Shown here: positions 1 through 24,332 of the stretch, in pieces
Layout: every line of letters starts with the position of its first letter
Position numbering within the stretch: position 1 is the stretch's first letter
From: an uncultured Methanobrevibacter sp.
GTDB taxonomy: Archaea; Methanobacteriota; Methanobacteria; Methanobacteriales; Methanobacteriaceae
Reading direction: 5' to 3' (one strand)
Assembly: GCF_902785855.1 (NCBI RefSeq)
Contig: NZ_CADAAJ010000001.1
DNA: 64,000 bases
Notes under the pieces: generated by a model
What the model was told of the DNA's origin: nothing
Databases searched by the model: none
What the model saw: the letters and a program-made list of their open reading frames with translations, nothing else
Position numbers and translations under genes: made by a program

Positions 1-1541
1 AAGTAGTTTGCATAATTGATGATTTGGACAGGTTATCTAAGGATGAAATCGCTGAAATGTTTAAGCTAATCAAGATAATGGCTGATTTTAAGAATATGAT
101 TTATATAGTTTCATTTGATAAGGATGTTGTTGCGAAGGCTTTAGATGATGATTATGGTGGTGAAAAATATATTGAAAAGATTATCAATGTTCCATTATAT
201 GTTCCTTTAATTACAACAGATGAGCTTACAAATTTATTATTGGAGGAAGTTGATAGGTTACGTGACCAGTATGAACTCTCTGTTGATTATTCAAGATTAA
301 AACGCTTTTTGAATTTTTATCCTATGGCTCAGGATAAACAATTTGGTGTAATCCACTTCTTTAAAAATCTTCGAGATATAAAACGTTTTATCAATATTTT
401 AGAGTTTAACATAGAGCTAATTAAAGATGAGGTTAATTTTGCCGATTTTTTTGTTTTAACTGCGCTGCAGGTTTTTCATTTAGACATATACAATAAAATC
501 AAGTATAATGAATATTTATTAACTGATCATCATTACTATGATGGAGTTGCAATTTCTAAAGATGAAATTATCGAGTCTAAAAAAAGGGATTTTGAAAAAT
601 TTTGTGATGATGAAAACATTACTTTAATTTTGAAAAAACTATTCCCAATGATGAATTACATTTATGATTCTAATCATTATAATTTCCATTTTAAGAATTT
701 TGATGAACAATTGTTGATTTGCCATCTTAAGCATTTCAAATCCTATTTTAAATTGGACGATGTTGTAAAGGTTCTTCCAGAAAAAGAAGTTAATATCTTA
801 GTCGAGATGATTAATTCAAAAGAGTCTGTGGATGAAATATTTAATAATTTAAATGATTTGGGATTAAATAAAATAAGGCTATTCTTTGAGTACATGTTAA
901 ATAGACTTGAAAGAATAGTTAAAAAACGATATTTTATTAAAATTCTTTTTTTAGTTGAGGAAAGACTTGGAAGTGAAGTTTATAATTGCATGTACACTCC
1001 TCGAAATATTCAAGATTTAATCGTGAATTTACTTTATAAAATAGATAAAAATTGCAGATTTGAAATCTTAAAAGAGAATTTTGAATTATGTGATAATTTT
1101 GATTTGTTATGTTATCTTTGGAGATATATTAATGAAAATAATTATAATATCTATGTTGCAGATGAAGAAATATTGTCTAGCGATGAACTTGATTATTTAA
1201 GGCAGGTTTTGAAGGATAAATTAAATATTGCTGAGATTGTTCCTTGGGATAGTTCAAAATTCATTGAAATAATGACAATTTATGAAATACTTGATTTAAC
1301 AGAAATTAATGATACAATTATTAGTAATTCTCTTATAACTGCTGAGGATGTTTTATCCTTTTTGAATATTTTTAATCATGATGATAAAAAATCTAATTCG
1401 TCTCGAGTATATGTTGGGGAAATGAAGAAATATTGCAATATTGAAATTATTAAAAATAAAGTAGATGACTTGCCTCCAGAGTATAATGAAGAACAAGTTG
1501 TTAAAAGCTTTTTAAAGGGTTATGATTTGATTAATAATTAG
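1..1541 (+). CDS. KAP family P-loop NTPase, C-terminal portion (5' end lies outside the window)
   Basis: The frame is open from base 3 with no stop upstream of the track start. It reads VVCIIDDLDRLSKDEIAEMFKLIK...NMIYIVSFDKDVVAKAL...YIEKIINVPLYVP. This is the Walker-B hhhhDDLDR motif plus the downstream signature typical of KAP NTPases. Confidence 0.8.
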   Translation, partial: VVCIIDDLDRLSKDEIAEMFKLIKIMADFKNMIYIVSFDKDVVAKALDDDYGGEKYIEKIINVPLYVPLITTDELTNLLLEEVDRLRDQYELSVDYSRLKRFLNFYPMAQDKQFGVIHFFKNLRDIKRFINILEFNIELIKDEVNFADFFVLTALQVFHLDIYNKIKYNEYLLTDHHYYDGVAISKDEIIESKKRDFEKFCDDENITLILKKLFPMMNYIYDSNHYNFHFKNFDEQLLICHLKHFKSYFKLDDVVKVLPEKEVNILVEMINSKESVDEIFNNLNDLGLNKIRLFFEYMLNRLERIVKKRYFIKILFLVEERLGSEVYNCMYTPRNIQDLIVNLLYKIDKNCRFEILKENFELCDNFDLLCYLWRYINENNYNIYVADEEILSSDELDYLRQVLKDKLNIAEIVPWDSSKFIEIMTIYEILDLTEINDTIISNSLITAEDVLSFLNIFNHDDKKSNSSRVYVGEMKKYCNIEIIKNKVDDLPPEYNEEQVVKSFLKGYDLINN

Positions 1542-1544
1542 TGA

Positions 1545-2444
1545 GTGTTAAAAATGTTGGATATTGATTTTGATTATAGTTTTATTGAGAAACTAGCAGT
1601 TGTAATATGTGGTGATGAGTATAGCGATAAATTTTGTGAAGATATTTCTCCTACTAAATGTCCAGTATATAGAACTAAACCACAATTAGAAAAGTTTTTT
1701 GAAGATATTGTGGATTTTAAATCTGATGATGGGGAATCTAGAAAAATATTTACAATTCAGTGTTTGTCTAAAATAAATAATTTAAATAAAATGGATATTG
1801 TTTTAGAGAAATTAACAAATCCTAAAACATATCTCGATGAAAAAATTGTCAAATTCATTATTAATGAAGTTAATGGAATAATAAAATGGTATGATATTGA
1901 AATAAAGTTAGAAAAGAATCAACCAACTATTGTTGAATTAGATGAATCAGTTAATGTTGATATTTCAAATAAAGAAATGGGTGATTTTGTAATATTAGAT
2001 TTTAAAGAATTGATTGATGATGAAACTTTATCTGAAATAATGAATCTTCGATGGTTGGAGATAAAGCATACTTATTTATCCAAATCTTATTTATCAACTG
2101 TTGTGTTATTAGGCAGCATACTTGAAGGTTTGTTGTATTATTATGTTTCTACTAATTATAATACTATTAAATCAGTTTCATCAGCTCCCAAAGATTACTC
2201 AGGAAAAATTATTTCAATAGATAATTGGAAATTAAATGATTTGATAAATGTTGCTCATGAATGCAATTGGCTTGATGATGATATTAAAACATTTAATGAA
2301 GGTTTGAGAGATTATAGGAATTTAATTCATCCTAAAGTACAAAAAAATAAGCTAATAATTCCTGATAAAGATACATGTGATATTTGTATCGATGTTGTTG
2401 TTGCAGCGTTCAATGATTTGAAAAATAAAGAATACTTAAAGTAA
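1545..2444 (+). CDS. Hypothetical protein with a C-terminal HEPN-like helical domain
   Basis: It starts 4 nt after the KAP stop; ATG 1554, preceded by GTGAGTG, is probably the real start. The C-terminal third reads GSILEGLL...WKLNDLINVAHE...GLRDYRNLIHP, which gives an R-x6-H motif with RN in a helical context. The N-terminal stretch CPVYRTKPQLEKFF...SRKIF resembles N-terminal modules on Abi/HEPN proteins, from recollection only. Confidence 0.55.
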   Translation: MLKMLDIDFDYSFIEKLAVVICGDEYSDKFCEDISPTKCPVYRTKPQLEKFFEDIVDFKSDDGESRKIFTIQCLSKINNLNKMDIVLEKLTNPKTYLDEKIVKFIINEVNGIIKWYDIEIKLEKNQPTIVELDESVNVDISNKEMGDFVILDFKELIDDETLSEIMNLRWLEIKHTYLSKSYLSTVVLLGSILEGLLYYYVSTNYNTIKSVSSAPKDYSGKIISIDNWKLNDLINVAHECNWLDDDIKTFNEGLRDYRNLIHPKVQKNKLIIPDKDTCDICIDVVVAAFNDLKNKEYLK

Positions 2445-2502
2445 TTTTTTCTTTATTCATAAAACTAAATTTTTTTCACTGAGTAACAATATAGATTTTG
2501 TC

Positions 2503-2988
2503 ATGAAATTAATTAATGAAAGATGTAATGAATGTGATTCAAAAATAGATCCCTATGAATTTTTTATAAATAATGATGGGAGTAATTTTTTTTGCTCAGA
2601 AAAATGTTGTAAACAGTATTATAATAGAACTCATGAAGAATTGTTTATATATAAATCTATTTGTAGTGGATATGATGAATGTCATGAATTGAATAATATT
2701 TCAGAAAGGTGTAAAACTGAAAAGGAACTTCGAATGTCACAGTATGGTTTTCCACAAGGATTTAAGCAGAATAGGTGTCTTCCTTCTGAAATTTCGATTA
2801 TTCGCACTAATATGAAATTATATAATTTTGTAAAGCAATCTGAAGAGCAATCATCTAAATTGAATGAAAAAACAGTAAATCTCACGAAATTTAATGTTAA
2901 TTTAACAATAGCAATGTTGTTATTAGCAGCTATTAATGCAATAGGTATCATTGTTCAAATTTGGTTACAAATGTCTAGTGGAGGTTAA
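2503..2988 (+). CDS. FCS/TRASH-like zinc-ribbon protein with a C-terminal transmembrane helix
   Basis: It contains CNEC-x18-FCSEKC (a CxxC...FCSxxC pattern). A hydrophobic helix LTIAMLLLAAINAIGIIVQIWL sits at the C-terminus. Confidence 0.55.
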   Translation: MKLINERCNECDSKIDPYEFFINNDGSNFFCSEKCCKQYYNRTHEELFIYKSICSGYDECHELNNISERCKTEKELRMSQYGFPQGFKQNRCLPSEISIIRTNMKLYNFVKQSEEQSSKLNEKTVNLTKFNVNLTIAMLLLAAINAIGIIVQIWLQMSSGG

Positions 2989-2989
2989 T

Positions 2990-3721
2990 ATGATTAAAAA
3001 TTTAAAATTAAAATCACTTGAACTTGGTAAATTGATTGTCAAAAATGAAATTCATATTGATTGGTATAATATTTTAGATGCATTTGAATTTTTATATGTA
3101 TTTGATTCCCACCCTCGTTTAATTAGAAGTCAAAATTGGGGTGACCCGGATTATAACGATTGTGTAATCGGGGTTATTTTTGATTCTTTAAGTGATGATA
3201 AATTACGTGCTTGTGACATGATAGAATATATTTTAAAAAATTGCACTGGAATTGAAGAATTGGAAATAACTAAAATCATGTCTGATTTTCGAGGGGATGA
3301 ACCTTATTTAAATACAAATAGAACAACTGATGAAGAAATTAAAGATTTAATTGAACACATTAATCAATCTGTTTCTTCAGGAAAATTAGTATTTGCTCTT
3401 GATAGATTACATACATTAATGACTAAATATGTAAAGGAATTATGTGTAATTCATTCTATTCCCTTTGATGAAAATGAGAGATTAGATGTTATATTTAAAA
3501 GCTATGTTAATTATATTAAGGAGTACATTGACTCAGACATGTCTTTAACAATACTAAAATCAAATATATCTCTCTTCTCACAATTTAACAATATAAGGAA
3601 TAATTATACTTATGCTCATGATAATAATGTTTTAGATGATGCTGAAAGTAAATTAATTTTTAAAAATATTGTCAATGTTAAAGAATTTGTCGATGATTTA
3701 GAAGAATGTATATTTAATTAG
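2990..3721 (+). CDS. AbiJ-like protein with an Abi_C-type HEPN domain
   Basis: ATG 2990 lies 1 nt after the upstream stop and is preceded by GGAGG; the track start at 2951 is unlikely. Motifs FALDRLHTLMTKYVKELC ... FNNIRNNYTYAHD (RN-x5-H) match my recollection of the Abi_C HEPN signature. Confidence 0.6.
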   Translation: MIKNLKLKSLELGKLIVKNEIHIDWYNILDAFEFLYVFDSHPRLIRSQNWGDPDYNDCVIGVIFDSLSDDKLRACDMIEYILKNCTGIEELEITKIMSDFRGDEPYLNTNRTTDEEIKDLIEHINQSVSSGKLVFALDRLHTLMTKYVKELCVIHSIPFDENERLDVIFKSYVNYIKEYIDSDMSLTILKSNISLFSQFNNIRNNYTYAHDNNVLDDAESKLIFKNIVNVKEFVDDLEECIFN

Positions 3722-3763
3722 TTATCTAAAATTTTTTATTAATTAATGATAAAATATTAATTC

Positions 3764-5179
3764 ATGATTAGCGAATACAAATATCCAGATTTTCACTTCA
3801 ATACGATTGTAGATGAATTTAATACTGAAAAAATATTTTTCGAAGCAGATAATGCTAAACTCATTTTTAGTGATGAAGAAACTTACAATCTTTCAAATAT
3901 TAAATTATATATCTTAGATGATATTAAACTAGATTTTGAATTAAATGAAAGGATAAGTAGAGACTATGATAAGTTCAATATTGAGTTTGAATCATCAGGG
4001 GGTTGGTTGATTAATATTGAGGGATGTTATTTTACATTTTTTGAAAATATGTATCCTGTCTCTGCTGAAGGGCTTAATGTAAAACTCATTAAAGGGCAGT
4101 GCAGTAATGACACTCCTGTACGATATTATAAGTTCATTGAAAATTTAAATTTAAGTAATGAATGTGAAATTAATGAAGTTAAATGCACGGAACTGGATAA
4201 TTTATTTTTAATAAAGCACAAAAATGACTTTTTTAAAAATATTGACGGCTATTTCTACATTACGGATAGCTATAATAATATAAAAGATGTTTTTAGTAAT
4301 TTATATTTTCTTTTAAAATATTATTCTGCCGAATCTGCCAGCATGAGAATTTCTTACTGTTTGGGTGATGATTTTGAAAAAATTGAAATTGGACTTCCAT
4401 CCACATATTCAAATTTCAAGTATGAATCCTGTTTTTATGATACATATCGAAATACTCTTTTTGATTTTCTAAATTCATCTTATGATTCCTATGTTGGACT
4501 TAAAAATGAGGGCATAATTGATGTTAATTTATTAATTCACTATTTAGCCTTTTTAAAAAGGGAAAGATATATGGAAGTTGAATTATTAATTTCAGCAATC
4601 ATTCTTGAAGTCTTAACAAAAAACCATAAGAAAATTAAGGATTCAAATGAGGCTAAATTCGCTTCTGATTTAAGAAAATTAATTAAAAAATTAGATTTAG
4701 ATTTCGATAAGTTAGATGAATTTTTTAAAGGATATGGTGTAGTTTGTGATAGCAATACATTTTTAAGCGAAATTGTTAAAGTAAGAAATGATATAGTTCA
4801 TGGAAATGCTGTAGTTTCACTAAAACTTTGTTATTTAATGACAACTTTTGTAAATATCCTTGCCTTAAAATTATTTAATATTAAATGTGCAATGTATGTT
4901 CCATTAATCAAAAGGAATGGGTTTACACATGAATTTTTAGAACAATTCATCTTAAGTCGTGATGATGAAGAAGTTGAAGAGGATACTCGTGAAATAGATG
5001 ATCAACCTATTGAAGTAGAAGAGATTAATGGGAAATTATATTTGCCACTTGAATCATTTAATGGTGAAGAGGATGTTATTCATGAAGGTGATAAATTTAG
5101 GCTTTTAGAATTTGAAACAAAAGAGTATGGTGAAGATTGCAAACTCAATTTAAAAATGGCACGTTTTGTGAAACAATAA
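3764..5179 (+). CDS. ApeA-like protein: large N-terminal domain plus a C-terminal HEPN domain (RNxxxHG)
   Basis: The 471-aa protein has the canonical HEPN motif EIVKVRNDIVHGN, preceded by a helix LISAIILEVLTK. It ends in an acidic C-terminal tail. Confidence 0.55.
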   Translation: MISEYKYPDFHFNTIVDEFNTEKIFFEADNAKLIFSDEETYNLSNIKLYILDDIKLDFELNERISRDYDKFNIEFESSGGWLINIEGCYFTFFENMYPVSAEGLNVKLIKGQCSNDTPVRYYKFIENLNLSNECEINEVKCTELDNLFLIKHKNDFFKNIDGYFYITDSYNNIKDVFSNLYFLLKYYSAESASMRISYCLGDDFEKIEIGLPSTYSNFKYESCFYDTYRNTLFDFLNSSYDSYVGLKNEGIIDVNLLIHYLAFLKRERYMEVELLISAIILEVLTKNHKKIKDSNEAKFASDLRKLIKKLDLDFDKLDEFFKGYGVVCDSNTFLSEIVKVRNDIVHGNAVVSLKLCYLMTTFVNILALKLFNIKCAMYVPLIKRNGFTHEFLEQFILSRDDEEVEEDTREIDDQPIEVEEINGKLYLPLESFNGEEDVIHEGDKFRLLEFETKEYGEDCKLNLKMARFVKQ

Positions 5180-5411
5180 TGATGGAGTTCATTGATTTTT
5201 GATGGATTTTGTGATGGACTTTTTAATTAATAAATTGATTAATTATTTGAGGTTTTTATCATAAAACTGCCATCTATTTGATCATGTTTTTAATATAAAT
5301 GAGTGCTGAATTATTTTGATGGACTTGACATAGAGTTAGCTTGCTCTATATGTTATATATTATTATATAACTATTCCACTGCCCACTAAAACCTGAAATC
5401 CTTGAAAAATT

Positions 5412-5656
5412 TCAATAAGGTATGATGAATGGTATTCTCCAGATTATAAAAGACATGTACTTTTTATGACACCGCTTGCAGAGTGTTATGCCGTTATCCA
5501 GATTAAGTCGTAGGGGTATAAAATTCTTAAACGAAAACACTTGATGAGTCCTGCTGGATCTCCACAAAAAGCAGCATCCATTATCCCTCTTATTCTCTTT
5601 AGTATTTGTCTTCCTCCATCTTGTTTTGTAAACGTCAATCTGTTCTGTTGAAGTTC
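5412..5656 (-). pseudogene. HNH endonuclease remnant, frameshifted and truncated at the IS boundary
   Basis: This is my own minus-strand translation. One frame reads ...ILKRIRGIMDAAFCGDPAGLI. An adjacent frame reads ...THQVFSFKNFIPLRLNLDNGITLCKRCHKK then stops at 5412-5414. Together they give a C-x2-CG ... H ... N ... LCxxCH pattern. There is no start codon, and the region is noticeably more GC-rich than its flanks. Confidence 0.35.
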
Positions 5657-5657
5657 A

Positions 5658-5681
5658 GGGTGTCCGCCAAAATTGAATTTT
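5658..5681. repeat. Left terminal inverted repeat of the IS
   Basis: GGGTGTCCGCCAAAATTGAATTTT matches the reverse complement of 7419-7442 at 23 of 24 positions. Confidence 0.85.
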
Positions 5682-5994
5682 GATTTTTTGTCAAAAAATT
5701 TTTTAGCCTAATTTTTATTATTTTTACTATATTCTTTCAAATTTTTATTTATTTTAATTTTTATATTTTATTCATTTTTTAAATCATTATTGGATTTTAT
5801 ATTGTTTTTATTTTTTGTTTTAATTGAATTTTAGATAGTTAAGTTTATATACTTGGTTATATATAATTTATATTAGATATAATTTGATTTGGTGTTGTTT
5901 TTTATGGTTAAAGAAAGTTAAATAAGAATCAGACAAAATTTGGTATTAAGACACTTGATTGGAATGTTCCAGCTAACCATATTTCTCGTTTGTC

Positions 5995-7398
5995 GTGGAA
6001 TTTATTGAAGAAGTTTTTCCACTTTTAAATATCAAAGAACCCAAGAAAAAGAAAGGAAGAGACTCCTTTCCAGTAGATTCAATGTTAAAACTATTTATTT
6101 ATGCTAAAATACAACATATTGACCGAACATCCATTATTGCAGACATGGCACGATACCATGACATATTTAAATATGTTTGCGACGATATCGGGCCTTCTGA
6201 AAGATCAATTCAACGATATAGAAGAGAATACGGCCATTATTTCGAAGTATTATTGAAAATGACCTTAAAAAAGGCATTTGATGAAGGATTCACTGAATTT
6301 AATCATGTTGCTATTGATGGAACCATCAAAAAAGCATACAATTCCAACAACAACACCATAACAAAAAAAGAAACACAAATATTGGTCGATTACTACGAAA
6401 GACGACCAATAGACTCTGAATCACTTGAAAAACTTCATAAACCTGCTCAAAGATTGTTCGAAAAGAAAGACATGGGTGATGAAGATAAATTAGAACTATT
6501 GTATGGAATAGAAACACAATTTACATTCACAGGACAAGATAGAATACCAGTAAACGATATTGAAGCAAGATTTATGGAAGGTAAGAAAGGAAACTTCATG
6601 GTTGCCTATAATATCCAATCTGCAGTCGATTATGACACCAAATTAATCTGTGCAATAAACGTCACACAAAACCCTACAGACCATTATGAACTATCAAACA
6701 TCGCAGAAATAGCAATAAAAAACATTAACACCAAACCAAAATATATAAGTGCAGATACAATCTAATTAAACCAAATATCATTATACTACTTAGTAGATAA
6801 AAAAATAGATGGATTAATACCAAACAGAAAACAAAGCAAAGAAAAAATAGGAAAATTAAACCCAAATCCATATCATAAAGACCATTTTGAATATAATTAT
6901 GAATTAGATGCATTTAAACGCCCAGAAAATCAATATATGTACTTTTTTGCAAAATATGTTGAACCACATAAAGACCCAGAAAAACCAGATAAAATAAAAA
7001 GACTTTACAATAATTACGAAGCCTGTAAAAACTGCAAATCAAGAAATAAATGTTGTTCATCCTCATAAACACACAAAACCATCACAGAATACGGTTCAGA
7101 AATGCAAAAAGTAATGAACCAGAAAATGGAAAAACAAGAATATAAAGACGAATATGCCAAAAGATCAAGCGTTGAAGGACCATTTGGAATATTCAAAGAA
7201 CAATTCCAAATAGAAAAAGAAGTTGGCACCGGAATGATAAAAACAGAAGAAAGAATAAACTTAGACGCATTAGCATATAATTTAATACGATTATACAACA
7301 TTAAACAAGAAATAGAAAATACAACAGAAGATTTAGAAGATTTCTGCGAAAGTACATCCATTAAAAATCAATTAAAACTCGATGTGACAATATTTTAA
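5995..7398 (+). pseudogene. DDE transposase interrupted by in-frame stops
   Basis: The track ORFs 5995-6765 and 7102-7398 are in the same frame. They are joined by an open stretch that contains only two TAA codons (6763-6765 and 7066-7068). Motifs: DSMLKLFIYAKIQHI (DUF772-like), AIDGT, SADTI*, CKNCKSRNKCC, and SVEGPFGIFKEQF...LAYNLIRL. Upstream, 5966-5989 in another frame reads VPANHISR, so the 5' end is probably frameshifted as well. Confidence 0.8.
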
Positions 7399-14754: not shown

Positions 14755-17700
14755 ATGGTGATTAAAATGTTTAAACTAAAGTTAGCTATTAGCAAAAATT
14801 TTCTAATTTCGCTTCTATTTATAGTTTTAATATTTGGCATTTTCTGCATTAATGTAGATGGAATATATGCTAGTGATAATAATCAAACTGATGATGGATT
14901 CAAATTAGATAAAAATACACAAGATAAACTAAAAAATTCTCAAATTAATAATTTAAAAGAAAATACGCATGACGATATTTTAAAAGCAAATGGAGGTACA
15001 TTTCAGACAATTAGAGATAAAATTAAAAGTACACCTGATGGAGGTACTCTGGTTTTGGATGGAATTTATACAGCATCAAACAGTGATGATGTAATTGTTG
15101 TTAACAAACCAATTACAATAACTTCAAATTCACCGACTATTTTAAATGGTATGGGAATATCTCAAATTTTTAAATTTAAATCAAAAGCAGTAGGATCAAC
15201 AATTTCAAATCTAAAATTTATCAATGGTTATGCTGTTAAAGGTGGTGCAATTCTAATTGAAGGCAAGGATATTAGTGTTTTCAATTGTATATTTGAAGAA
15301 AATAAAGTAAGTTATGTTGGAGGAGCTGTTGCATCAAGTTATAATACAACCACACCAAGTAATGCACTTATACAAGATTGTCAGTTTATAAAAAATAGTG
15401 CAACAATTTCTGCTGGAGCTCTTGCATTGTTTGGAGATAATTCAAAAGTGATAAATTGCATATTTGATTCAAATTATGCAACAAATGATTTTGGAAATGA
15501 CAGTTATGGGGGTGCAATACAGATAGGAATGGATGGTAGTCAATCAAGATGTCAGGTTATTGATTCAACATTTATTAATAATTGGGCATTTTCAAATTCT
15601 TTATTCCACTCTCACGGGGGTGCAGGTTGTGTTCGTAACGGAGTTGAATATACTGGATGTAAATTTATTAATAACTCTGCAGGTGAAGGTGGGGCATTAA
15701 CATTTCATGCTTCTGGAGTAATAGATAACTGTATATTTATTAATAATACTGCCAGAGATTATGGTGGAGCTTTATCAACAGGATTTTTATATACTGGTGC
15801 TATGAAATTAAGAATTTTAAATTCTGACTTTGATGGGAATTCTGCGCCCTATGGTGGAGCTATTCAATTGGCTGGAGAGAATATTTATGTTGAAAATTCA
15901 AAATTCAATAAAAATTTCGCATCAATTAATGGAGGAGCAGTAAACATTGCTGCAACAACAGTTGAATTATTTAATAATAATTTTAATAATAATTGGGCTA
16001 ATGTTGATGGTGGTGCGGTCTATATTAAAGGCAGAAATACAAAAATTCATCAATCATCCTTCATTTCAAATAGTGCAATTCCTGATGTTAATAAGTATGA
16101 TGATGGTTTAGGTGGTGCAATTTATGTTAATAGTACCAATGCTGAAGTTTTGAACAATGAATTCAAATTGAACACTGCAAGAAACGGTAGTGCAATTTAT
16201 TATGATAAATATGGTGTTAAATTAATATTAAAAAATAATATCATGAGTCAAAATCAGGCATGGGTCTATTGGCTTCCAATTAATGCAAAAAATATTTACT
16301 TTGGTGATAATCAAAATATTTCTTCATTAATTTATGGTGGAAATAATATTGCAAAATATAATAATTTGGATATTTCCAATGCAATTTATAATGCTGCATC
16401 ACATGAAGCTATTGAAATTGACGGTGTAACTCCAATTAAAGGAGCAACTGATGACGGAAGATTGTATCAGGATGATCGTGAATATAATATGGATATAATA
16501 TTGACTGTCGTATATGAAGATGGTAGCATTATTTACAACAAAACATTAGTTTCTTCATATTTGGGGGAAGTTGATGTTTTATTAAGTAATTTGAAAACTG
16601 GAACCTATTATGTAAAGGCAACTCATATTGAAGATACATATTATAAAGGAATTACAAATACTACTTCATTTATTGTTTATCCAAAAGTAGACAATCAAAT
16701 AAAGATTTCTTCAGATAAATTGATTTATAATTTTGATGATTTGGTAGTATGGACAATTAATATTACCAATAATGGTCCTAATAATGCAACTGATGTCGTA
16801 ATTAGTGAAATAATACCTAAAGGATTAATTTATTTCTCTGATACAAGTGGAGGATTATATGATGGGCAAAATCATCAGTTTAATATTTCAAAACTGGATG
16901 TTGGACAAGTTATAACTTTTAAAATATTTACTATTACATGTGGAACCGGTGAAATAGTAAATAATGTCAATATATCTTCTCCTCAATTTGATACTAATTT
17001 AGAAAATAATTATGATGAAGCTATGATATTTGTTAATCCTGCAGCAGATTTGGAAGTTGTTAAAACAGTTAACATTACAAGCCCAAATTATTTGGATATT
17101 ATAAATTGGACAATTGTGGTTAGAAATAATGGTCCTGATATTTCTCACAATATTACTGTTAGTGATATATTACCTTCTTCGTTAATTCCAATTAATTTCA
17201 CAAGGGGGTATGATTTTAAAAGAGGAATTTGGGAGATTGAATCATTGAAAGTAGGTGAGGAAATAATTTTTAATATTATTTGTATGGTAAATGCAACAGG
17301 TTTGATTGAAAATAATGTTCATGTCAAGGGTGCAGAATATGATTATGATTTATATAATAATCATGATAATGAATTGATTAGAGTAAATCCTGCTTGTGAT
17401 TTGGCAATTATTAAATTAGTTAATTCTTCAAATGTTAACTACCATGATTATGTCAAATGGACATTAATAATATTAAATAATGGACCTGACAATGCAACTG
17501 GTGTAAATATCACTGATATTTTACCAAAAGGTTTCACATATATTAACTCCACATTGCCATATGTTAATGGTGTTATAACTGTGGAAAATTTGGCAGTTGG
17601 TGAATTAATCAATATTGATATAATTTGCTTTGTTGAAACAACAGGTAATTACACAAATTTTGCAAATGTTACATGTAATGAATATGATTATAATATGTCC

Positions 17701-19677
17701 AATAATAAAGACAATGAATCTATTGTTGTTAATCCAGCAGCAGATTTGATTGTTGAAAAAGAAGTTAATAATACTGAACCTAAATTTGGCGATTATGTTA
17801 TCTGGAAAATTACAATAACAAATGATGGTCCTGATGTTGCTCATAGTATAGTTGTTTATGATGTATTGCCAAAATCTTTAATTTATTTGGAGGATGATTC
17901 CTTTGGTATGTATAATTACACAACTGGTATATGGAATATCTCACGTTTGGATATAGGTGAAACTGCAGTATTAAATATCAAATCTAAGGTAAATAAAACT
18001 GGAGTCATTGTTAACTATGTAAATGTCACTGCAAAAGAATATGATTATAATTTGGATAATAATTATGATAATGAAACTATCGTGGTCGAACCGGCTGCTG
18101 ATGTAGTTATTATTAAATTGGTTAATAATACAAATCCAAATTATAATGATTTGATTAAATGGGATGTTATTGTATTTAATAATGGTCCTGATAAAGCTAA
18201 TAATGTCAGTGTTAGTGAAATAATGCCTGAAGGATTAATAATAATTAATTCAACATCAACTAAAGGGCTTTATGGAAATAATTTCTGGTTTTTATGCTGT
18301 CTTGAAAATGGTGAAGTTCAAAGTTTAGAAATCATTTGTAGAGTAAATAAAACTGGAAATATGACAAATTATGTTGTGGTCCGATCAGATGAATATGATC
18401 CAAACATAGATAATAATGATGATAATAAAACCATTCAAATACCTCCTGCTGTTGATGTGGAAGTAATTGTTAATGTAAACAATACTCGTCCTCATTTTGC
18501 AGATACTATACTTTGGCAAATCACTGTTAAAAACAATGGTCCAGATAATGCAACTTCAGTTAAATTATCAGATATTATTCCTGATTCATTAATTTTTGTT
18601 GATTATGATGCATCAGTTGGAAATTATTCTAATGGTTTATGGGATATAGGTATATTGAATGTTGGTCGTGTAGAATATTTAAATATTACTTGTATTGCAA
18701 ATGCAGTTGGAAGAATTATTGACAGTGCAAATGCATCAGCATTGGAATATGATTGGAACATGTCAAATAATAAAGATAGTGATGAAATCAATGTTTTACC
18801 TGTTACAGATTTGGCAATTGAGAAAATTGTTAATAATAACAGTCCAAATTATAATGATTTAATTAAATGGTCGTTAATTGTTACAAATAATGGTCCAAAT
18901 GATGCCTCCAATGTTAGAGTAATGGATATGATTCCACATGGATTGCGATTCATTAAATCAAGTGATGATGAAAATTATAAAAATGGATTGTGGAAAGTTG
19001 GTGATTTATCAAATGGTCAAACCAAGCAGTTGGATATATTCTGTAAAGTTGTATCAACAGGTTTAATCACTAACTTTGCAAATGTTTGGAGTGATGATTA
19101 TGACTCTGATTTAGATAATAATCAAGATAATAAATCAATAACTGTTGCTCCAGCTAGTGATTTGGCAATTACAAAAATAGCATCAAAATATAATTATGTT
19201 GTAGGGGATATTATAAAATATACAATTCGTGTTGTTAATAATGGTCCTGATACAGCATATAATATAAAAATTAAAGAAATTTTGGATAAATCTTTAATTT
19301 TGAAATCAGTTAAACCAAGTAAAGGTAAATTCAATAGACTTACACAAACTTGGGAAATTGATAGTTTGGGATTTGGTGAATCTGCAGTTTTGATTGTTTA
19401 TGCTATTGCTAAACAGGGTGGAATTGTTAAAAATGTCGTTAAAGTGTCTAGTGATAACTATGATTATGATTTGAGTAATAATAAAGATTATGCTATAGTT
19501 AATATTGCTAAAAGTGGTAAAAATATAAAAATAACAAAAAAAGACAATAAATTAAATGAAGAAATACCAAAAAATGTTGTTAAAATCCATAATACTGCTA
19601 ATCCTATTGTAATGTTGATTTTTTCATTATTATTTTGTGGGATATTTGTATGTAGTGGATTTTCAAATAAAAGATGA
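14755..19677 (+). CDS. Giant adhesin-like protein (ALP): signal peptide, parallel beta-helix (PbH1) repeats, 8 DUF11-type repeats, C-terminal TM anchor
   Basis: The product is 1640 aa. Repeated GGA(I/V) beta-helix rungs are followed by NNGPD.A..V.V.D.LP.GL repeats. The protein ends with a hydrophobic helix. Confidence 0.9.
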   Translation: MVIKMFKLKLAISKNFLISLLFIVLIFGIFCINVDGIYASDNNQTDDGFKLDKNTQDKLKNSQINNLKENTHDDILKANGGTFQTIRDKIKSTPDGGTLVLDGIYTASNSDDVIVVNKPITITSNSPTILNGMGISQIFKFKSKAVGSTISNLKFINGYAVKGGAILIEGKDISVFNCIFEENKVSYVGGAVASSYNTTTPSNALIQDCQFIKNSATISAGALALFGDNSKVINCIFDSNYATNDFGNDSYGGAIQIGMDGSQSRCQVIDSTFINNWAFSNSLFHSHGGAGCVRNGVEYTGCKFINNSAGEGGALTFHASGVIDNCIFINNTARDYGGALSTGFLYTGAMKLRILNSDFDGNSAPYGGAIQLAGENIYVENSKFNKNFASINGGAVNIAATTVELFNNNFNNNWANVDGGAVYIKGRNTKIHQSSFISNSAIPDVNKYDDGLGGAIYVNSTNAEVLNNEFKLNTARNGSAIYYDKYGVKLILKNNIMSQNQAWVYWLPINAKNIYFGDNQNISSLIYGGNNIAKYNNLDISNAIYNAASHEAIEIDGVTPIKGATDDGRLYQDDREYNMDIILTVVYEDGSIIYNKTLVSSYLGEVDVLLSNLKTGTYYVKATHIEDTYYKGITNTTSFIVYPKVDNQIKISSDKLIYNFDDLVVWTINITNNGPNNATDVVISEIIPKGLIYFSDTSGGLYDGQNHQFNISKLDVGQVITFKIFTITCGTGEIVNNVNISSPQFDTNLENNYDEAMIFVNPAADLEVVKTVNITSPNYLDIINWTIVVRNNGPDISHNITVSDILPSSLIPINFTRGYDFKRGIWEIESLKVGEEIIFNIICMVNATGLIENNVHVKGAEYDYDLYNNHDNELIRVNPACDLAIIKLVNSSNVNYHDYVKWTLIILNNGPDNATGVNITDILPKGFTYINSTLPYVNGVITVENLAVGELINIDIICFVETTGNYTNFANVTCNEYDYNMSNNKDNESIVVNPAADLIVEKEVNNTEPKFGDYVIWKITITNDGPDVAHSIVVYDVLPKSLIYLEDDSFGMYNYTTGIWNISRLDIGETAVLNIKSKVNKTGVIVNYVNVTAKEYDYNLDNNYDNETIVVEPAADVVIIKLVNNTNPNYNDLIKWDVIVFNNGPDKANNVSVSEIMPEGLIIINSTSTKGLYGNNFWFLCCLENGEVQSLEIICRVNKTGNMTNYVVVRSDEYDPNIDNNDDNKTIQIPPAVDVEVIVNVNNTRPHFADTILWQITVKNNGPDNATSVKLSDIIPDSLIFVDYDASVGNYSNGLWDIGILNVGRVEYLNITCIANAVGRIIDSANASALEYDWNMSNNKDSDEINVLPVTDLAIEKIVNNNSPNYNDLIKWSLIVTNNGPNDASNVRVMDMIPHGLRFIKSSDDENYKNGLWKVGDLSNGQTKQLDIFCKVVSTGLITNFANVWSDDYDSDLDNNQDNKSITVAPASDLAITKIASKYNYVVGDIIKYTIRVVNNGPDTAYNIKIKEILDKSLILKSVKPSKGKFNRLTQTWEIDSLGFGESAVLIVYAIAKQGGIVKNVVKVSSDNYDYDLSNNKDYAIVNIAKSGKNIKITKKDNKLNEEIPKNVVKIHNTANPIVMLIFSLLFCGIFVCSGFSNKR
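16681..19506 (+). repeat. Eight tandem DUF11-like coding repeats with a period of about 345-360 nt
   Basis: The blocks W.I.V.NNGPD.A....V.(D/E)I(L/I)P..L and YD.(D/N)..NN.D recur eight times. Confidence 0.8.
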
Positions 19678-20552: not shown

Positions 20553-23500
20553 TTAAATTATTCCTAATTTTGTAGCTGTTTTTTTATCAACACTACCAGT
20601 TACTTTTAATCCTTTGTCGTGTTGGAATTCTTTTACAGATCTGACTGTACAACTTTTAAATTTACCATCAACTTTTAAGTAATGGTTTTTGTATGTTTGA
20701 TAGTAACCATTATCTTTTAGTGCTTGTTGGATTTCTTTAACAGTTGATTTGTCTTTGCTGCCTTTAGATACAGTCTTGAAAGTAACAATTACTTTAATTT
20801 TAGCTTTTTTACCTGCTTTGTTATAGTATTTGTCTCCTCTGTATTTAATAACTGCTTTGTAAGTTCCTTTTTTGTTGAGTTTGGTAATTTTGAAAGTAGC
20901 TTTACCTTTAGAATTAGTTTTAGCCTTGTATTTTTTACCTTTAATTTTTAAAGTTACTTTGGCTTTTTTAATTGCTTTACCAGTATTGTCTTTTAATACA
21001 ACAGAGTATTTCTTGGTTTTTGTTTTTGTTTTAAATTTTTTATTTTTAGCAATTAATTTAGGTGTTGCTTTTTCAATTGTAACTTCAATATCTTTTGTTG
21101 ATGGTTCATAGTTAGTGTTACCGTTAAATATTATATTTACAAGGTAAGTTTTAGGAACTAATCCTTTAGTTGATACTTTTACTTGCCCTTTATCATCTGT
21201 AAAGTAATTTTTAGCACCATTTAAATCAACGGTTATTTCAGCACCACTAATAGCATTACCTTTTATATCAACTAATGTAATGACAAGTTCATCATTAGCA
21301 TTGAAAACTGTAATAATTGAATCTGCTATTATTTGTGAAGGAAGTTTTTTAGCATTTATGTTTATGGTGTATTTTGCATCACCAATTATAGCAGTTATAC
21401 TGCCTATTCCTGCGTTAGTTGAAGTATATTCAATAGATTCTCCAGAAAATGCTGTTGTAGTATTAATATTACCATTTGTTGCAGTAATTATTAATTCAAC
21501 AAAATCCATAAGATCATTTTCAGATATGTTGTTAGAAGTTGAATTATAATTATACAGTTTGAATATAATTTTTGTGGAATCAAATACAGAAATATTATCT
21601 GTTTTTGCACTTCCATTTAAAAATAGCCATGTATCATAATTAACATCGGATTTTATTTTAGGTTGTGTTTTATAATTGCTTGCGTTATTTCCAAACCAGT
21701 TATAATCAGCATTTAACCCACTATCAGCCATAATTTCATAGTTTGTTACATTATTTATAAATACATTATTGTTTACAAACACGTTATTTGATGTATTAAC
21801 ATTAATGGTTGATTCAATGTTATTGTTTGAAAAAATACTATTGGTTATATTTGTACTGTTCATAGTATTTGCCAATATTACTGCATTACCAGTATTATGA
21901 ATAAATATTGCTTCAAATTTTGAATTTAATGAATTGATAGCACGAATCACAGCACCAGTTCCATTGTTATTAATGAAATATGATTGTGTAATTGTAGTAT
22001 TTTCTATATTTATCAATATGAAAATTGCACTTCCATTATTTGCTGCTTTATTTTCAATAAAACTGATATTTTCGAACTTGGTGTGTTTTGAATTATCAGC
22101 AGATAATGCTCCACCATTTTTACCAGCTGTATTACTTATAAAATTAGTTCTGATAAAAGTAACATTGTTTAAATCATTATCTACATTTATTGCACCACCA
22201 TTGCTGGCTGCATTATTATTAATAAATGTGACATTGTCAAAAATGTTACGTATTAAACTTCCATAAACGTTTATACATCCTGCATCAACTGTAAGTGCAG
22301 TATTGTTATAAAATACACAGTTTTTATAGTTTTCTGAATCTGAACTCAATCTTATGTATATTGCACCACCATTTTTGACAGCAATATTGTTGATAAACAT
22401 AGTATAATAATATTTATTTTTATTGGAGGATTCTGTGATGTATATTGCACCACCATTAGTTGCATTATTGTTAATAAATAATGTATTATTATAGTTATTG
22501 TTATTGGACTTTTTCTTACTATATATTGCTCCTCCCAATTCTTTAGCAGTGTTTTTAATAAATATACAATTGTTTAAATTATTACTTTCTATATCTTGTG
22601 TATATGCTAGTGCACCACCATATCTGGTAGCACTATTGTTTATAAACTCACATGATTCAAATGAGTTATAATTAGAACCTGCATAAACGTTTAATGCTCC
22701 GCCATCTCTAGCACTATTGTTTGAGAAAGTACAATCCACATATGAATTATTATTATTCACAAAATAATCCACGTTTATTGCTCCTCCATTATTTTTTGCA
22801 TAATTATTTGTAAATGTGAGGTTTTTGAATGTTGTTTTAAATAATTCCTTGTGGAAATTGATTGCACCACCGTCTCCATTAGATGCATTATTATCAGAAA
22901 ATGTATTATTTTCAAATAGATTTTCATTGGAGTTTGTATTAATATAAATTGCCCCTCCATTTTTAGTTGCAGTATTTGATATAAATTTACTATTTTTTAT
23001 TTCGCTGTTCTGAGCTGTACCTGTTATATAAATTGCACCACCATTCCGGGCAGCATTGTTATTTATAAAGTCTGAATTGTCAAAAATGGTTTTTTTCAAA
23101 TTTCCATTAATAATTATGCAACCACCATCCGCTGAAAGTGCATTGTTTTTCATGAAAATGCAGTTTGTAAAGTTGTCTGAATCTGAATAACTATTGATGT
23201 ATATTGCACCACCATTATTTGTAGCATTGTTGTTGATGAATAGGGTATTGTTGTATTTATTTTTATTAGAATATGTGTTGGTGTATATTGCACCACCATT
23301 GTTTCCAGCGGTGTTGCCTATAAATATACAATTGTTTAAATTAGTGGTATTTATTTGACGTGTATAGCGCATTGCACCACCAAATCTGGTAGCACTATTG
23401 TTTATAAACTCACAGGATTCAAATGAGTTAGAATTGGAACCTGCATAAACGTTTAATGCAGCGCCGTCTCTAGCACTATTATTGATGAAACCACAATTTA

Positions 23501-24332
23501 TGTATGAATTATTATTATTCAAATAGTTATCAATGTTTATTGCTCCTCCGCCAGTATTTGCACGATTATTAGTAAACATAAGATTTTTGAATGTTGTTTT
23601 TATTAAATGTAAATGGAAATTGATTGCACCTCCATCTGCACTTGTTGCTTTGTTGTTGAAAAAAGTTATTTTTTCAAATAGAGTTTCAGTACAATTACTT
23701 AAAATATAAATTGCTCCTCCATTTTTTGTTGCAATATTTGATGTAAATTCACAATTTTTTATTTCACTGTTGTTGATTGTGCCTTTAACATAAATTGCTC
23801 CTCCATTTTCTGTTGCAGTATTATTTATAAATTTACAGTTGTTAATTACAATATCTGCAATGTTTCCGTTGAATATTATTGCTCCACCAAAGTTTGATTG
23901 TCCGTTTATAAATGTAATATTATTTAAAATAACCTTGTTTGAAGTGGTAATGTTGAATATTGTAGATTGTTTTAAAGCATTTATTGTAAAACCGTTACCA
24001 TTAATAGTTATTGGATTTGTTATGTTAATTCCAGTTCTTGAAAAAGTATTTTCGTATGTATAATTATTTTCAAGATTTACAATACCGCCTTCACCGGCAG
24101 CATCAATCTTTTTTTGTAAATCGGTAAATGTTCCGTTATCAGTTTCGCCAATTATTTCTCCGTCATTTACTTTTTTAACAATATTTTCATTAGAAAATGA
24201 TTGTATCTCGTCAACTGGCATTTCAGAATTTATAGTTGTACTATCAGTTGTATTTTCTGCAGCACTAACTCCAGAAATTAAAAACAATGTTACAAGAAGT
24301 AATGCCAATGTAATTAGTTTTTTATTAATCAA
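20553..24332 (-). CDS. Adhesin-like protein: PbH1 beta-helix repeats, Ig-like Lys-rich repeats, C-terminal PG_binding_1-like domain
   Basis: The product is 1259 aa. The start is TTG with GGTGA upstream, followed by the signal peptide LLLVTLFLISGVSAAE. Many NGGAIY rungs are present. The C-terminus VKEIQQALKDNGYY...VDGKFKSCTVRSVKEFQHDKGLKVTGSVDKKT looks like a peptidoglycan-binding domain. Confidence 0.9.
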   Translation of the reverse strand: MINKKLITLALLLVTLFLISGVSAAENTTDSTTINSEMPVDEIQSFSNENIVKKVNDGEIIGETDNGTFTDLQKKIDAAGEGGIVNLENNYTYENTFSRTGINITNPITINGNGFTINALKQSTIFNITTSNKVILNNITFINGQSNFGGAIIFNGNIADIVINNCKFINNTATENGGAIYVKGTINNSEIKNCEFTSNIATKNGGAIYILSNCTETLFEKITFFNNKATSADGGAINFHLHLIKTTFKNLMFTNNRANTGGGAINIDNYLNNNNSYINCGFINNSARDGAALNVYAGSNSNSFESCEFINNSATRFGGAMRYTRQINTTNLNNCIFIGNTAGNNGGAIYTNTYSNKNKYNNTLFINNNATNNGGAIYINSYSDSDNFTNCIFMKNNALSADGGCIIINGNLKKTIFDNSDFINNNAARNGGAIYITGTAQNSEIKNSKFISNTATKNGGAIYINTNSNENLFENNTFSDNNASNGDGGAINFHKELFKTTFKNLTFTNNYAKNNGGAINVDYFVNNNNSYVDCTFSNNSARDGGALNVYAGSNYNSFESCEFINNSATRYGGALAYTQDIESNNLNNCIFIKNTAKELGGAIYSKKKSNNNNYNNTLFINNNATNGGAIYITESSNKNKYYYTMFINNIAVKNGGAIYIRLSSDSENYKNCVFYNNTALTVDAGCINVYGSLIRNIFDNVTFINNNAASNGGAINVDNDLNNVTFIRTNFISNTAGKNGGALSADNSKHTKFENISFIENKAANNGSAIFILINIENTTITQSYFINNNGTGAVIRAINSLNSKFEAIFIHNTGNAVILANTMNSTNITNSIFSNNNIESTINVNTSNNVFVNNNVFINNVTNYEIMADSGLNADYNWFGNNASNYKTQPKIKSDVNYDTWLFLNGSAKTDNISVFDSTKIIFKLYNYNSTSNNISENDLMDFVELIITATNGNINTTTAFSGESIEYTSTNAGIGSITAIIGDAKYTININAKKLPSQIIADSIITVFNANDELVITLVDIKGNAISGAEITVDLNGAKNYFTDDKGQVKVSTKGLVPKTYLVNIIFNGNTNYEPSTKDIEVTIEKATPKLIAKNKKFKTKTKTKKYSVVLKDNTGKAIKKAKVTLKIKGKKYKAKTNSKGKATFKITKLNKKGTYKAVIKYRGDKYYNKAGKKAKIKVIVTFKTVSKGSKDKSTVKEIQQALKDNGYYQTYKNHYLKVDGKFKSCTVRSVKEFQHDKGLKVTGSVDKKTATKLGII
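22283..23807 (-). repeat. Internal tandem segmental duplication, two units of 762 nt (boundaries approximate)
   Basis: The 30-nt string TCTGGTAGCACTATTGTTTATAAACTCACA occurs at 22623 and 23385 (offset 762 nt, which is 254 codons). The flanking sequence and the protein are colinear, for example NSATRFGGAMRYT versus NSATRYGGALAYT. Confidence 0.7.

Follow-up and report, generated by a model that had tools for sequence, protein, structure and literature searches.

The window analysed here is a stretch of 64,000 nucleotides (nt) from an uncultured Methanobrevibacter sp. (RefSeq assembly GCF_902785855.1, contig NZ_CADAAJ010000001.1). At its 5′ end, the 3′ part of a gene for a KAP-type P-loop nucleoside triphosphatase (NTPase; open reading frame 1, ORF1) is followed by ORF2, which encodes a protein of 296 amino acids (aa; 1554-2444) annotated in RefSeq as "hypothetical". 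We favour, with modest confidence, a reading in which this region closes a transcription unit of two genes within a Methanobrevibacter (M. thaueri-like) defence island and ORF2 is a self-contained sensor-effector of the abortive infection (Abi) type, which moves as a cassette and is not the obligate effector of KAP.

The closest relatives of ORF2 do not all accompany KAP. Eight distinct close-clade contexts of ORF2 were available, and KAP is absent from four of them (L111, L191, L195 and L197; ORF2 69-77% identical). In L111 ORF2 lies behind a DUF4062-HATPase_c_4 gene, in L191 it follows an AbiJ_NTD4-Abi_C gene at a distance of 302 nt and has a TATA-like box, in L195 a SEFIR/TIR gene takes the place of KAP, and in L197 the preceding gene encodes 378 aa without known identity; altogether, TATA-like boxes are found upstream of ORF2 in two non-KAP relatives. 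The comparison of L195 with the KAP-linked locus L201 is the clearest case of exchange: the two are 91% identical at the nucleotide level from exactly the ATG of ORF2 through the downstream Abi_C gene, and share nothing upstream. Here, ORF2 travels with its downstream neighbour while the upstream gene is exchanged. An Abi_C gene is placed just 3′ of ORF2 in L191, L195, L197 and L201. At the protein level, a KAP-linked copy (P0009) and a copy without KAP (P0011) have 88% identity in the N-terminal and 94% in the C-terminal domain, and are thus closer to each other than any two KAP-linked copies.

A wider survey of 160 loci, drawn from GTDB species representatives and JGI metagenomes and searched with a KAP hidden Markov model (HMM), revealed no KAP near any member of the ORF2 family. 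The initial annotation took lack of linkage among homologues as refuting a pair, and outside the sublineage described below the neighbourhoods do speak against the pair in this way. A tightly coupled gene is present upstream in 48% and downstream in 33% of the 160 loci, and the recurrent tight partners are HsdM/HsdS/HsdR of type I restriction-modification (R-M) systems, SNF2-NOV_C plus DUF1156 in a DISARM-like combination, the superfamily 1 (SF1) helicase-MTES_1575 protein, and HerA; in type I R-M operons the ORF2 family is found between hsdM, hsdS and hsdR. This occurrence in other defence operons agrees with the HEPN-R-M combinations described in 2013 (PMC3710099) and with the location of PrrC in the prr locus. 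Since the gene behaves as a mobile cassette that follows a wide range of defence genes, it is probably no dedicated partner of KAP.

Some of these arrangements are regular in themselves. In actinomycetes (L040, L056, L058, L060, L068, L069, L074, L084, L086 and others) the ORF2-family gene starts 7-9 nt after, or overlaps, a gene of 1400-1585 aa in which an SF1 helicase (AAA_11/AAA_12) is joined to an MTES_1575 nuclease at the C-terminus, a conserved two-gene unit seen in 14 loci. In L129, L135, L136, L141 and L145 a gene for a DUF1156 methylase-like protein of some 1000 aa comes after the ORF2-family gene, and in L129 (and in L135 by cluster membership) a SNF2-helicase/NOV_C protein is also encoded upstream, which gives the DISARM-like arrangement.

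The relatives of the window KAP were likewise found without ORF2. A 55%-identical relative forms a KAP-KAP tandem, a 50%-identical one has a HEPN_LA2681 gene upstream, and a 42%-identical KAP of M. smithii is solitary; none of these three loci contains ORF2 or a match to its C-terminal domain. In L101-L104 and L105-L106, the Methanobrevibacter relatives of KAP are arranged as a tandem of 741 and 682 aa separated by 11 nt, or lie 19 nt after HEPN_LA2681, the latter gene being preceded by a DpnII-MboI/'Aga_Helical-REase'-like gene and by a helix-turn-helix (HTH)-ImmA pair.

Within one Methanobrevibacter sublineage the association is of a different quality. KAP and ORF2 are adjacent in four contexts with unrelated flanks, namely the window together with contig L095, L001, L087-L094, and L201. 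In all of them KAP measures 679-688 aa and the junction 10-12 nt, with a shared GTG core; KAP is 63-83% and ORF2 70-78% identical across the four contexts, in the same rank order, and in the tree the KAP-linked ORF2 copies group together within a single subclade. KAP-ORF2 is a real unit, conserved, co-diverging and restricted to its lineage. Thus, of the dedicated KAP plus HEPN pair suggested in the initial annotation, adjacency and co-divergence hold in this sublineage, whereas the generality of the pair does not survive the wider loci, the KAP-free half of the close contexts, the SEFIR/TIR replacement and the KAP relatives devoid of ORF2.

These data also bear on the idea that KAP and ORF2 are fully independent genes, brought side by side by the tight packing of defence islands and sharing neither regulation nor function. 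The island is indeed dense with independent HEPN genes (the AbiJ gene ORF4 and the ApeA-like ORF5) and includes a transposase gene, and the shuffling of neighbours is extensive. However, the persistence of a 10-12 nt junction while the genes diverge to 63-70% and the flanks change is unexpected by chance, and 12 nt are too short for a separate promoter. We consider a pure neighbourhood effect quite unlikely.

At the other extreme, KAP and ORF2 could form an obligate two-component system, in which KAP would sense infection and, through an NTP-dependent conformational change or oligomerisation, would activate an HEPN RNase in ORF2 that cannot fire alone. The constancy of the junction with its GTG core in four flank contexts and the parallel divergence within a single subclade are consistent with this, as is the fact that a different HEPN family, HEPN_LA2681, abuts a related KAP. 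PrrC and RloC are precedents for NTPase-controlled HEPN RNases. In Enterococcus and gut bacteria, KAP NTPase domains control the antiphage regions to which they are fused (PMC13552941). On the other hand, ORF2 has an N-terminal domain of its own that is conserved (26-33% identity) in bacteria without KAP, the copy found behind SEFIR/TIR is 88-94% identical with a breakpoint exactly at the ORF2 ATG, half of the close contexts lack KAP, and the KAP relatives are solitary or in tandem. Moreover, PADLOC treats PifA as a single-gene system, and no KAP-HEPN fusion was found among the top 150 representatives of the C-terminal domain, all of which are 132-508 aa long. Overall, an obligate pair seems unlikely, though not negligibly so. 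A related scheme would have ORF2 as a fixed effector in Methanobrevibacter with an exchangeable upstream sensor or switch (KAP, SEFIR/TIR or DUF4062-HATPase_c_4), KAP licensing the HEPN RNase in the version carried by the window; we hold this to be rather unlikely. If true, the KAP-licensed ORF2 would correspond to PrrC/RloC acting in trans, and the two genes would be the first two-component antiviral system made of KAP and HEPN, one from an archaeon.

Several observations weigh against the self-contained cassette that we prefer. The fixed junction of 10-12 nt and the co-divergence down to 63% identity of KAP would also fit a functional pair within the sublineage; the close clade was sampled in only eight distinct contexts; and the unrelated HEPN_LA2681 gene placed 19 nt upstream of the 50%-identical KAP hints at a recurrent KAP-HEPN theme.

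The C-terminal half of ORF2 was claimed in the initial annotation to be HEPN-like, with an Arg/His pair spaced as in HEPN nucleases, and in silico this claim holds: the domain can be described as a DUF4145-like HEPN domain with a predicted metal-independent RNase site formed by E191, R252, R255-N256 and H259. Modelled alone with AlphaFold2, it is helical (predicted local distance difference test, pLDDT, 91; predicted template modelling score, pTM, 0.85), with helices at positions 14-32, 36-57, 84-93, 99-115 and 129-147 of the domain. The order is helix 1, helix 2 (GSILEG), an insert with a helix of its own (84-93; LINVAH), helix 3 with LRDYRNLIH at its end, and helix 4. In a Foldseek search of the PDB, the top of the list is almost all HEPN, and HEPN structures make up about two-thirds of the top 30, with template modelling (TM) scores of 0.55-0.67; the best fold matches are 2hsb, 1ufb and 1wol (target-normalised TM score 0.65-0.67), and HepT toxins, Csm6, the sacsin HEPN domain and AbiV are also matched. 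By definition (PMC3710099), helix 3 of HEPN domains ends with an Rx4-6H motif whose R precedes a polar residue; helix 2 contributes an acidic residue, and an insert separates it from helix 3. The model of ORF2 displays every one of these features: R252-x6-H259 fits Rx4-6H, the R is followed by the polar D, the motif ends the third core helix (99-115), E191 is located in helix 2, and the insert is at the expected place. The more conspicuous spacing R255-N256-x2-H259 corresponds to Rx3H.

Conservation of the site is high. Among 31 full-length homologues (alignment A1), R252, R255, N256 and H259 never vary, and in 142 diverse representatives of 50%-identity clusters (alignment A4) E191 and H259 are the only two invariant columns, while both R and the N of the motif are at least 90% conserved. 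Because the motif residues are conserved across homologues, the R/H spacing is not due to chance. In addition, weak DUF4145 matches were obtained with 12 of 24 and 11 of 142 relatives (best E 2.4e-4), in which positions 2-80 of the 88 in the profile are aligned. To be set against this assignment are the DUF4145 scores of about 15 bits, under the Pfam cut-off of 23.1, and the Foldseek E-values of the HEPN matches, which are non-significant (all >0.1, best 0.34).

It is conceivable that the domain has the HEPN-like fold without being catalytic, e.g., as a ligand- or protein-binding subunit of restriction or NTPase complexes, and is no toxin. Several HEPN families are indeed non-catalytic substrate-binding domains (PMC3710099), the best fold matches include nucleotidyltransferase-associated HEPNs of the 1jog and 2hsb type, and members of the family lie within type I R-M operons. 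Nonetheless, non-catalytic members typically lose the R...H motif (PMC3710099), while in the ORF2 family its H and the helix-2 Glu are the invariant positions, and we regard a non-catalytic role as very unlikely.

Curated resources have no entry for this domain. ORF2 itself gave no Pfam match at E<=1 and no match in PADLOC or NCBIfam, and the C-terminal-domain family comprises at least 4096 representatives of 50%-identity clusters (E<=1e-3) without any curated model. A fold search with the whole ORF2 model (pLDDT 84, disordered linker at residues 132-143) against PDB and BFVD returned nothing significant, as the signal is diluted in a two-domain model. Pfam-annotated DUF4145 relatives were sought with a profile, which listed close family members without annotation and no others; no match to the family was found in phage records, and the plasmid matches are all annotated as "hypothetical". 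The sole match of a sequence-profile search of the PDB with the C-terminal domain was FAM118B (E 0.036), a match that is probably due to chance; the human protein, which is SIR2-like and immune-related, aligns LHEDKNLVH with LRDYRNLIHP.

The N-terminal domain of ORF2 (AlphaFold2 pLDDT mostly 80-94) contains the invariant residues C19, G20, D21, Y39, R40, R63, P90, Y93 and N107 (alignments A1 and A5). It has no Pfam or PDB match and corresponds to none of AbiJ_NTD1-5. Two metagenome proteins, P0024 and P0025, combine an N-terminus 59% identical to that of ORF2 with a C-terminal Abi_C HEPN domain about 75% identical to the C-terminal half of ORF4 of the window. Given this fusion to Abi_C, the domain can be read as an AbiJ-type module, in line with the resemblance to Abi-type proteins noted in the initial annotation, and it appears to behave like an AbiJ-NTD-like swappable module. 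The two metagenome proteins look like natural chimeras, equivalent to window positions 1554-1990 joined to 3330-3721, as if neighbouring genes had recombined and the intervening DNA had been deleted. What the half-length matches bearing Abi_C have in common with ORF2 is the N-terminal domain and not the C-terminus. The exchange also works in the other direction: among the 142 representatives, 20 have an AbiTii N-terminus fused to the ORF2-type C-terminal domain, which is also found behind at least six other N-terminal regions besides AbiTii. The N-terminal domain is conserved at 26-33% identity in bacteria without KAP, and a domain kept regardless of which gene lies next to it cannot serve for docking to one particular partner.

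Sequence comparison identifies ORF1 as a soluble, PifA-like KAP P-loop NTPase, in agreement with the initial assignment. The fragment in the window matches Pfam KAP_NTPase (PF07693) with 87 bits (cut-off 20, E 1.7e-24) and the PADLOC PifA model with an E-value of 6.5e-34, and PF07693 was assigned to all full-length KAP relatives. The initial annotation had asked for the complete gene, and contig L095, which is 100% identical to window positions 1-5757, supplies its 5′ end: the gene has 682 codons, of which the 5′ 170, including Walker A, lie upstream of the window. The complete protein is PifA-like end to end, aligning over residues 3-661 with positions 6-700 of the 720 of PADLOC PifA (PDLC02361; E 9.9e-60). 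Both Walker motifs are intact, the complete protein having G48EWGSGKT as Walker A and VCIIDD172 as Walker B, and Walker B (VVCIIDDLDR) is encoded at the very start of the window, by bases 3-32. No transmembrane (TM) segment was found in the full KAP, the highest 19-residue Kyte-Doolittle mean being 1.34. TM helices inserted into the P-loop domain are typical of many KAPs and are not universal, and Aravind et al. reportedly described such inserts in many KAPs in 2004; since the inserts are not universal, membership in the KAP family holds despite their absence. PifA senses gp1.2/gp10 of phage T7 and excludes this phage; the profile match may point to a related function of the window KAP.

Upstream of KAP, L095 contains a gene (3914-4786) that ends 12 nt before the KAP start and encodes 290 aa with TM helices at the N-terminus and a coiled coil, and, further upstream, a ParE-like pair (3300-3820). 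The membrane protein was ruled out as a core member, as it is absent from the other KAP-linked loci. ORFs of 62 aa are located 5′ of KAP in L001, L087 and L201, with no obvious similarity by inspection; the one in L087 (261-449) resembles the first HEPN helices (RSAVGRYYYSCYHSAKDYF) and may be the remnant of an HEPN gene.

The positions of the genes and domains are reported in the table below. Both ORFs are located as the initial annotation had claimed, and all the peptides quoted there were found in ORF2: YRTKPQLEKFF (residues 39-49), SRKIF (62-66), NPKTY (89-93), GSILEGLL (187-194), WKLNDLINVAHE (225-236) and GLRDYRNLIHP (250-260). ORF2 has two candidate starts, a GTG at 1545 and the ATG at 1554, and since homologues all start at the ATG-equivalent 'ML(D/N)I(D/N)F', the true gap after KAP is 12 nt. 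The GTG core within it possibly acts as a Shine-Dalgarno-like ribosome-binding site. T-runs follow ORF2 in the window and in L001, whereas those of L087 are weaker and L201 has none; they could be an archaeal oligo-T terminator closing the KAP-ORF2 transcript. Because of the short gap and the T-runs, co-transcription of KAP and ORF2 is likely, while "almost certainly co-translated", as previously worded, is stronger than these features support.

Features of the KAP-ORF2 region and of the genes that follow it (positions in the window)
Feature	Position	Strand	Remarks
KAP gene, 3′ part	1-1541	+	512 codons, frame from base 3; TAG at 1539-1541
KAP-ORF2 spacer	1542-1553	+	12 nt (tgaGTGttaaaa); GTG core 8-9 nt before the ATG
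ORF2 N-terminal domain	1554-1970	+	Residues 1-139; predicted alpha plus beta-hairpin (alignments, AlphaFold2)
ORF2 C-terminal HEPN-like domain	1986-2444	+	Residues 145-296; predicted DUF4145-like (AlphaFold2, Foldseek, weak Pfam)
E191 codon	2124-2126	+	Acidic residue of helix 2; part of the predicted RNase site
R252-D-Y-R255-N256-L-I-H259-P260 codons	2307-2333	+	Predicted catalytic Rx6H at the end of helix 3
T-rich spacer after ORF2	2445-2502	+	T6 and T7 runs; read from the sequence
ORF3	2503-2988	+	161 aa; Cys-rich N-terminus, C-terminal TM helix
ORF4	2990-3721	+	AbiJ_NTD5 plus Abi_C HEPN (Pfam); RefSeq 'abortive infection family protein'
ORF5	3764-5179	+	Weakly ApeA-like HEPN, motif VRNDIVHG; RefSeq 'HEPN domain-containing protein'
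Transposase gene, DUF772	5995-6765		Separated from ORF5 by an AT-rich spacer

ORF3 to ORF5 belong to the island context and stand outside the conserved KAP-ORF2 pair. Exact matches to the neighbouring proteins come from M. thaueri or from uncultured Methanobrevibacter sp. ORF3, whose N-terminus is zinc-ribbon-like and whose stop is 1 nt before the start of ORF4, is kept 3′ of ORF2 in the window and in L001/L002 and is not found there in L087 or L201. Three different HEPN families (ORF2, ORF4 and ORF5) are encoded on the same strand within 3.7 kb of the island. The AT-rich stretch that separates ORF5 from the DUF772 transposase gene contains an indel of about 100 bp between the window (about 5654-5757) and L095 (10960-11163); the contigs are otherwise identical. 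Farther downstream (14755-19677 and 20553-24332), the window encodes adhesin-like proteins of very large size, which carry DUF11, Chlam_PMP repeats, Big_3_5 and PG_binding_1 domains and are typical of the cell-surface repertoire of Methanobrevibacter.

The self-contained cassette can be pictured as follows. The ORF2 cassette would integrate just 3′ of operons that carry unrelated defence genes, or within them, the partner being KAP in this sublineage and, elsewhere, type I R-M genes, the DISARM-like SNF2/DUF1156 genes, the giant gene for an SF1 helicase fused to a restriction endonuclease (REase)-type nuclease, SEFIR/TIR or DUF4062-HATPase_c_4. In the most likely mechanism, which follows the AbiJ/PrrC paradigm, the N-terminal domain would hold the presumed HEPN RNase latent until an infection cue triggers it; the HEPN domain would then cut RNA, thereby aborting the infection. 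In the window, ORF2 would represent a second, suicidal RNase layer that is expressed together with the KAP defence.

Known parts of this picture are KAP proteins like PifA, HEPN proteins of the Abi type and the shuffling of defence islands; new are the family that joins the unnamed N-terminal domain to a DUF4145-like HEPN, the behaviour of this family as a cassette, and a lineage-specific KAP-HEPN operon in a methanogen. If our reading is right, a very large "hypothetical" family with no Pfam, NCBIfam or PADLOC model would gain a name and a predicted active site (E191/R252/H259), and it would be a frequent passenger of operons of the type I R-M, DISARM-like and helicase-nuclease kinds, as well as of the defence islands of gut and rumen methanogens, whose antiviral systems are barely charted. 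The idea of a KAP-HEPN system would be tempered at the same time, with a lineage-restricted pairing and an exchangeable HEPN cassette.

Compared with known systems, the window KAP matches the PADLOC model of F-plasmid PifA from end to end and is soluble, while its host differs in being an archaeon. PifA is not known to need or carry an HEPN partner. The KAP proteins of PMC13552941, in which Walker B is needed for defence, resemble the window in coupling a KAP NTPase to a variable, presumed effector. Unlike the arrangement found here, where the putative effector is a separate, mobile gene, they are single polypeptides with TM helices and with C-terminal regions of no known fold, and HEPN has no occurrence in that paper; the eLife 2020 paper on NTP-dependent conflict systems does not discuss KAP. 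The anticodon nucleases PrrC and RloC share with KAP-ORF2 the juxtaposition of an NTPase and a presumed HEPN RNase and with the wider ORF2 family the type I R-M setting, together with the logic of a latent suicide RNase. In PrrC and RloC, however, the NTPase is fused and of the ABC or Rad50 type, whereas here the genes are separate and the NTPase is of the KAP type; moreover, ORF2 has no NTPase domain and also occurs without an NTPase neighbour.

With regard to HEPN families, the C-terminal domain was ruled out as a member of the c2405 family, since its HMM scored -0.6 bits against C_RS11400 with all filters off. C_RS11400 of E. coli CFT073 (390 aa, with an AbiTii-type N-terminus and a helix-hairpin-helix, HhH) is presumably c2405, by gene order counted from tcpC (c2398). 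The c2405/AbiTii family and the ORF2 family have AbiTii fusions in common, and unlike c2405 the ORF2 family keeps its Arg residues. As to AbiJ, the C-terminal domain of ORF2 has no Abi_C (PF14355) match at E<=1 and BLASTP against ORF4 finds nothing; on the other hand, AbiJ-type proteins (AbiJ-NTD1-5 plus Abi_C HEPN; PMC3710099) are built, like ORF2, from a variable N-terminal module and a C-terminal HEPN domain with R...H, and like the ORF2 family they are found in defence islands and R-M operons, one AbiJ gene (ORF4) being located two genes 3′ of ORF2 in the window itself. Finally, the contexts described for the DUF4145-like HEPN group (PF13643), i.e., R-M operons and helicase or REase partners, fit those in which the ORF2 family occurs.

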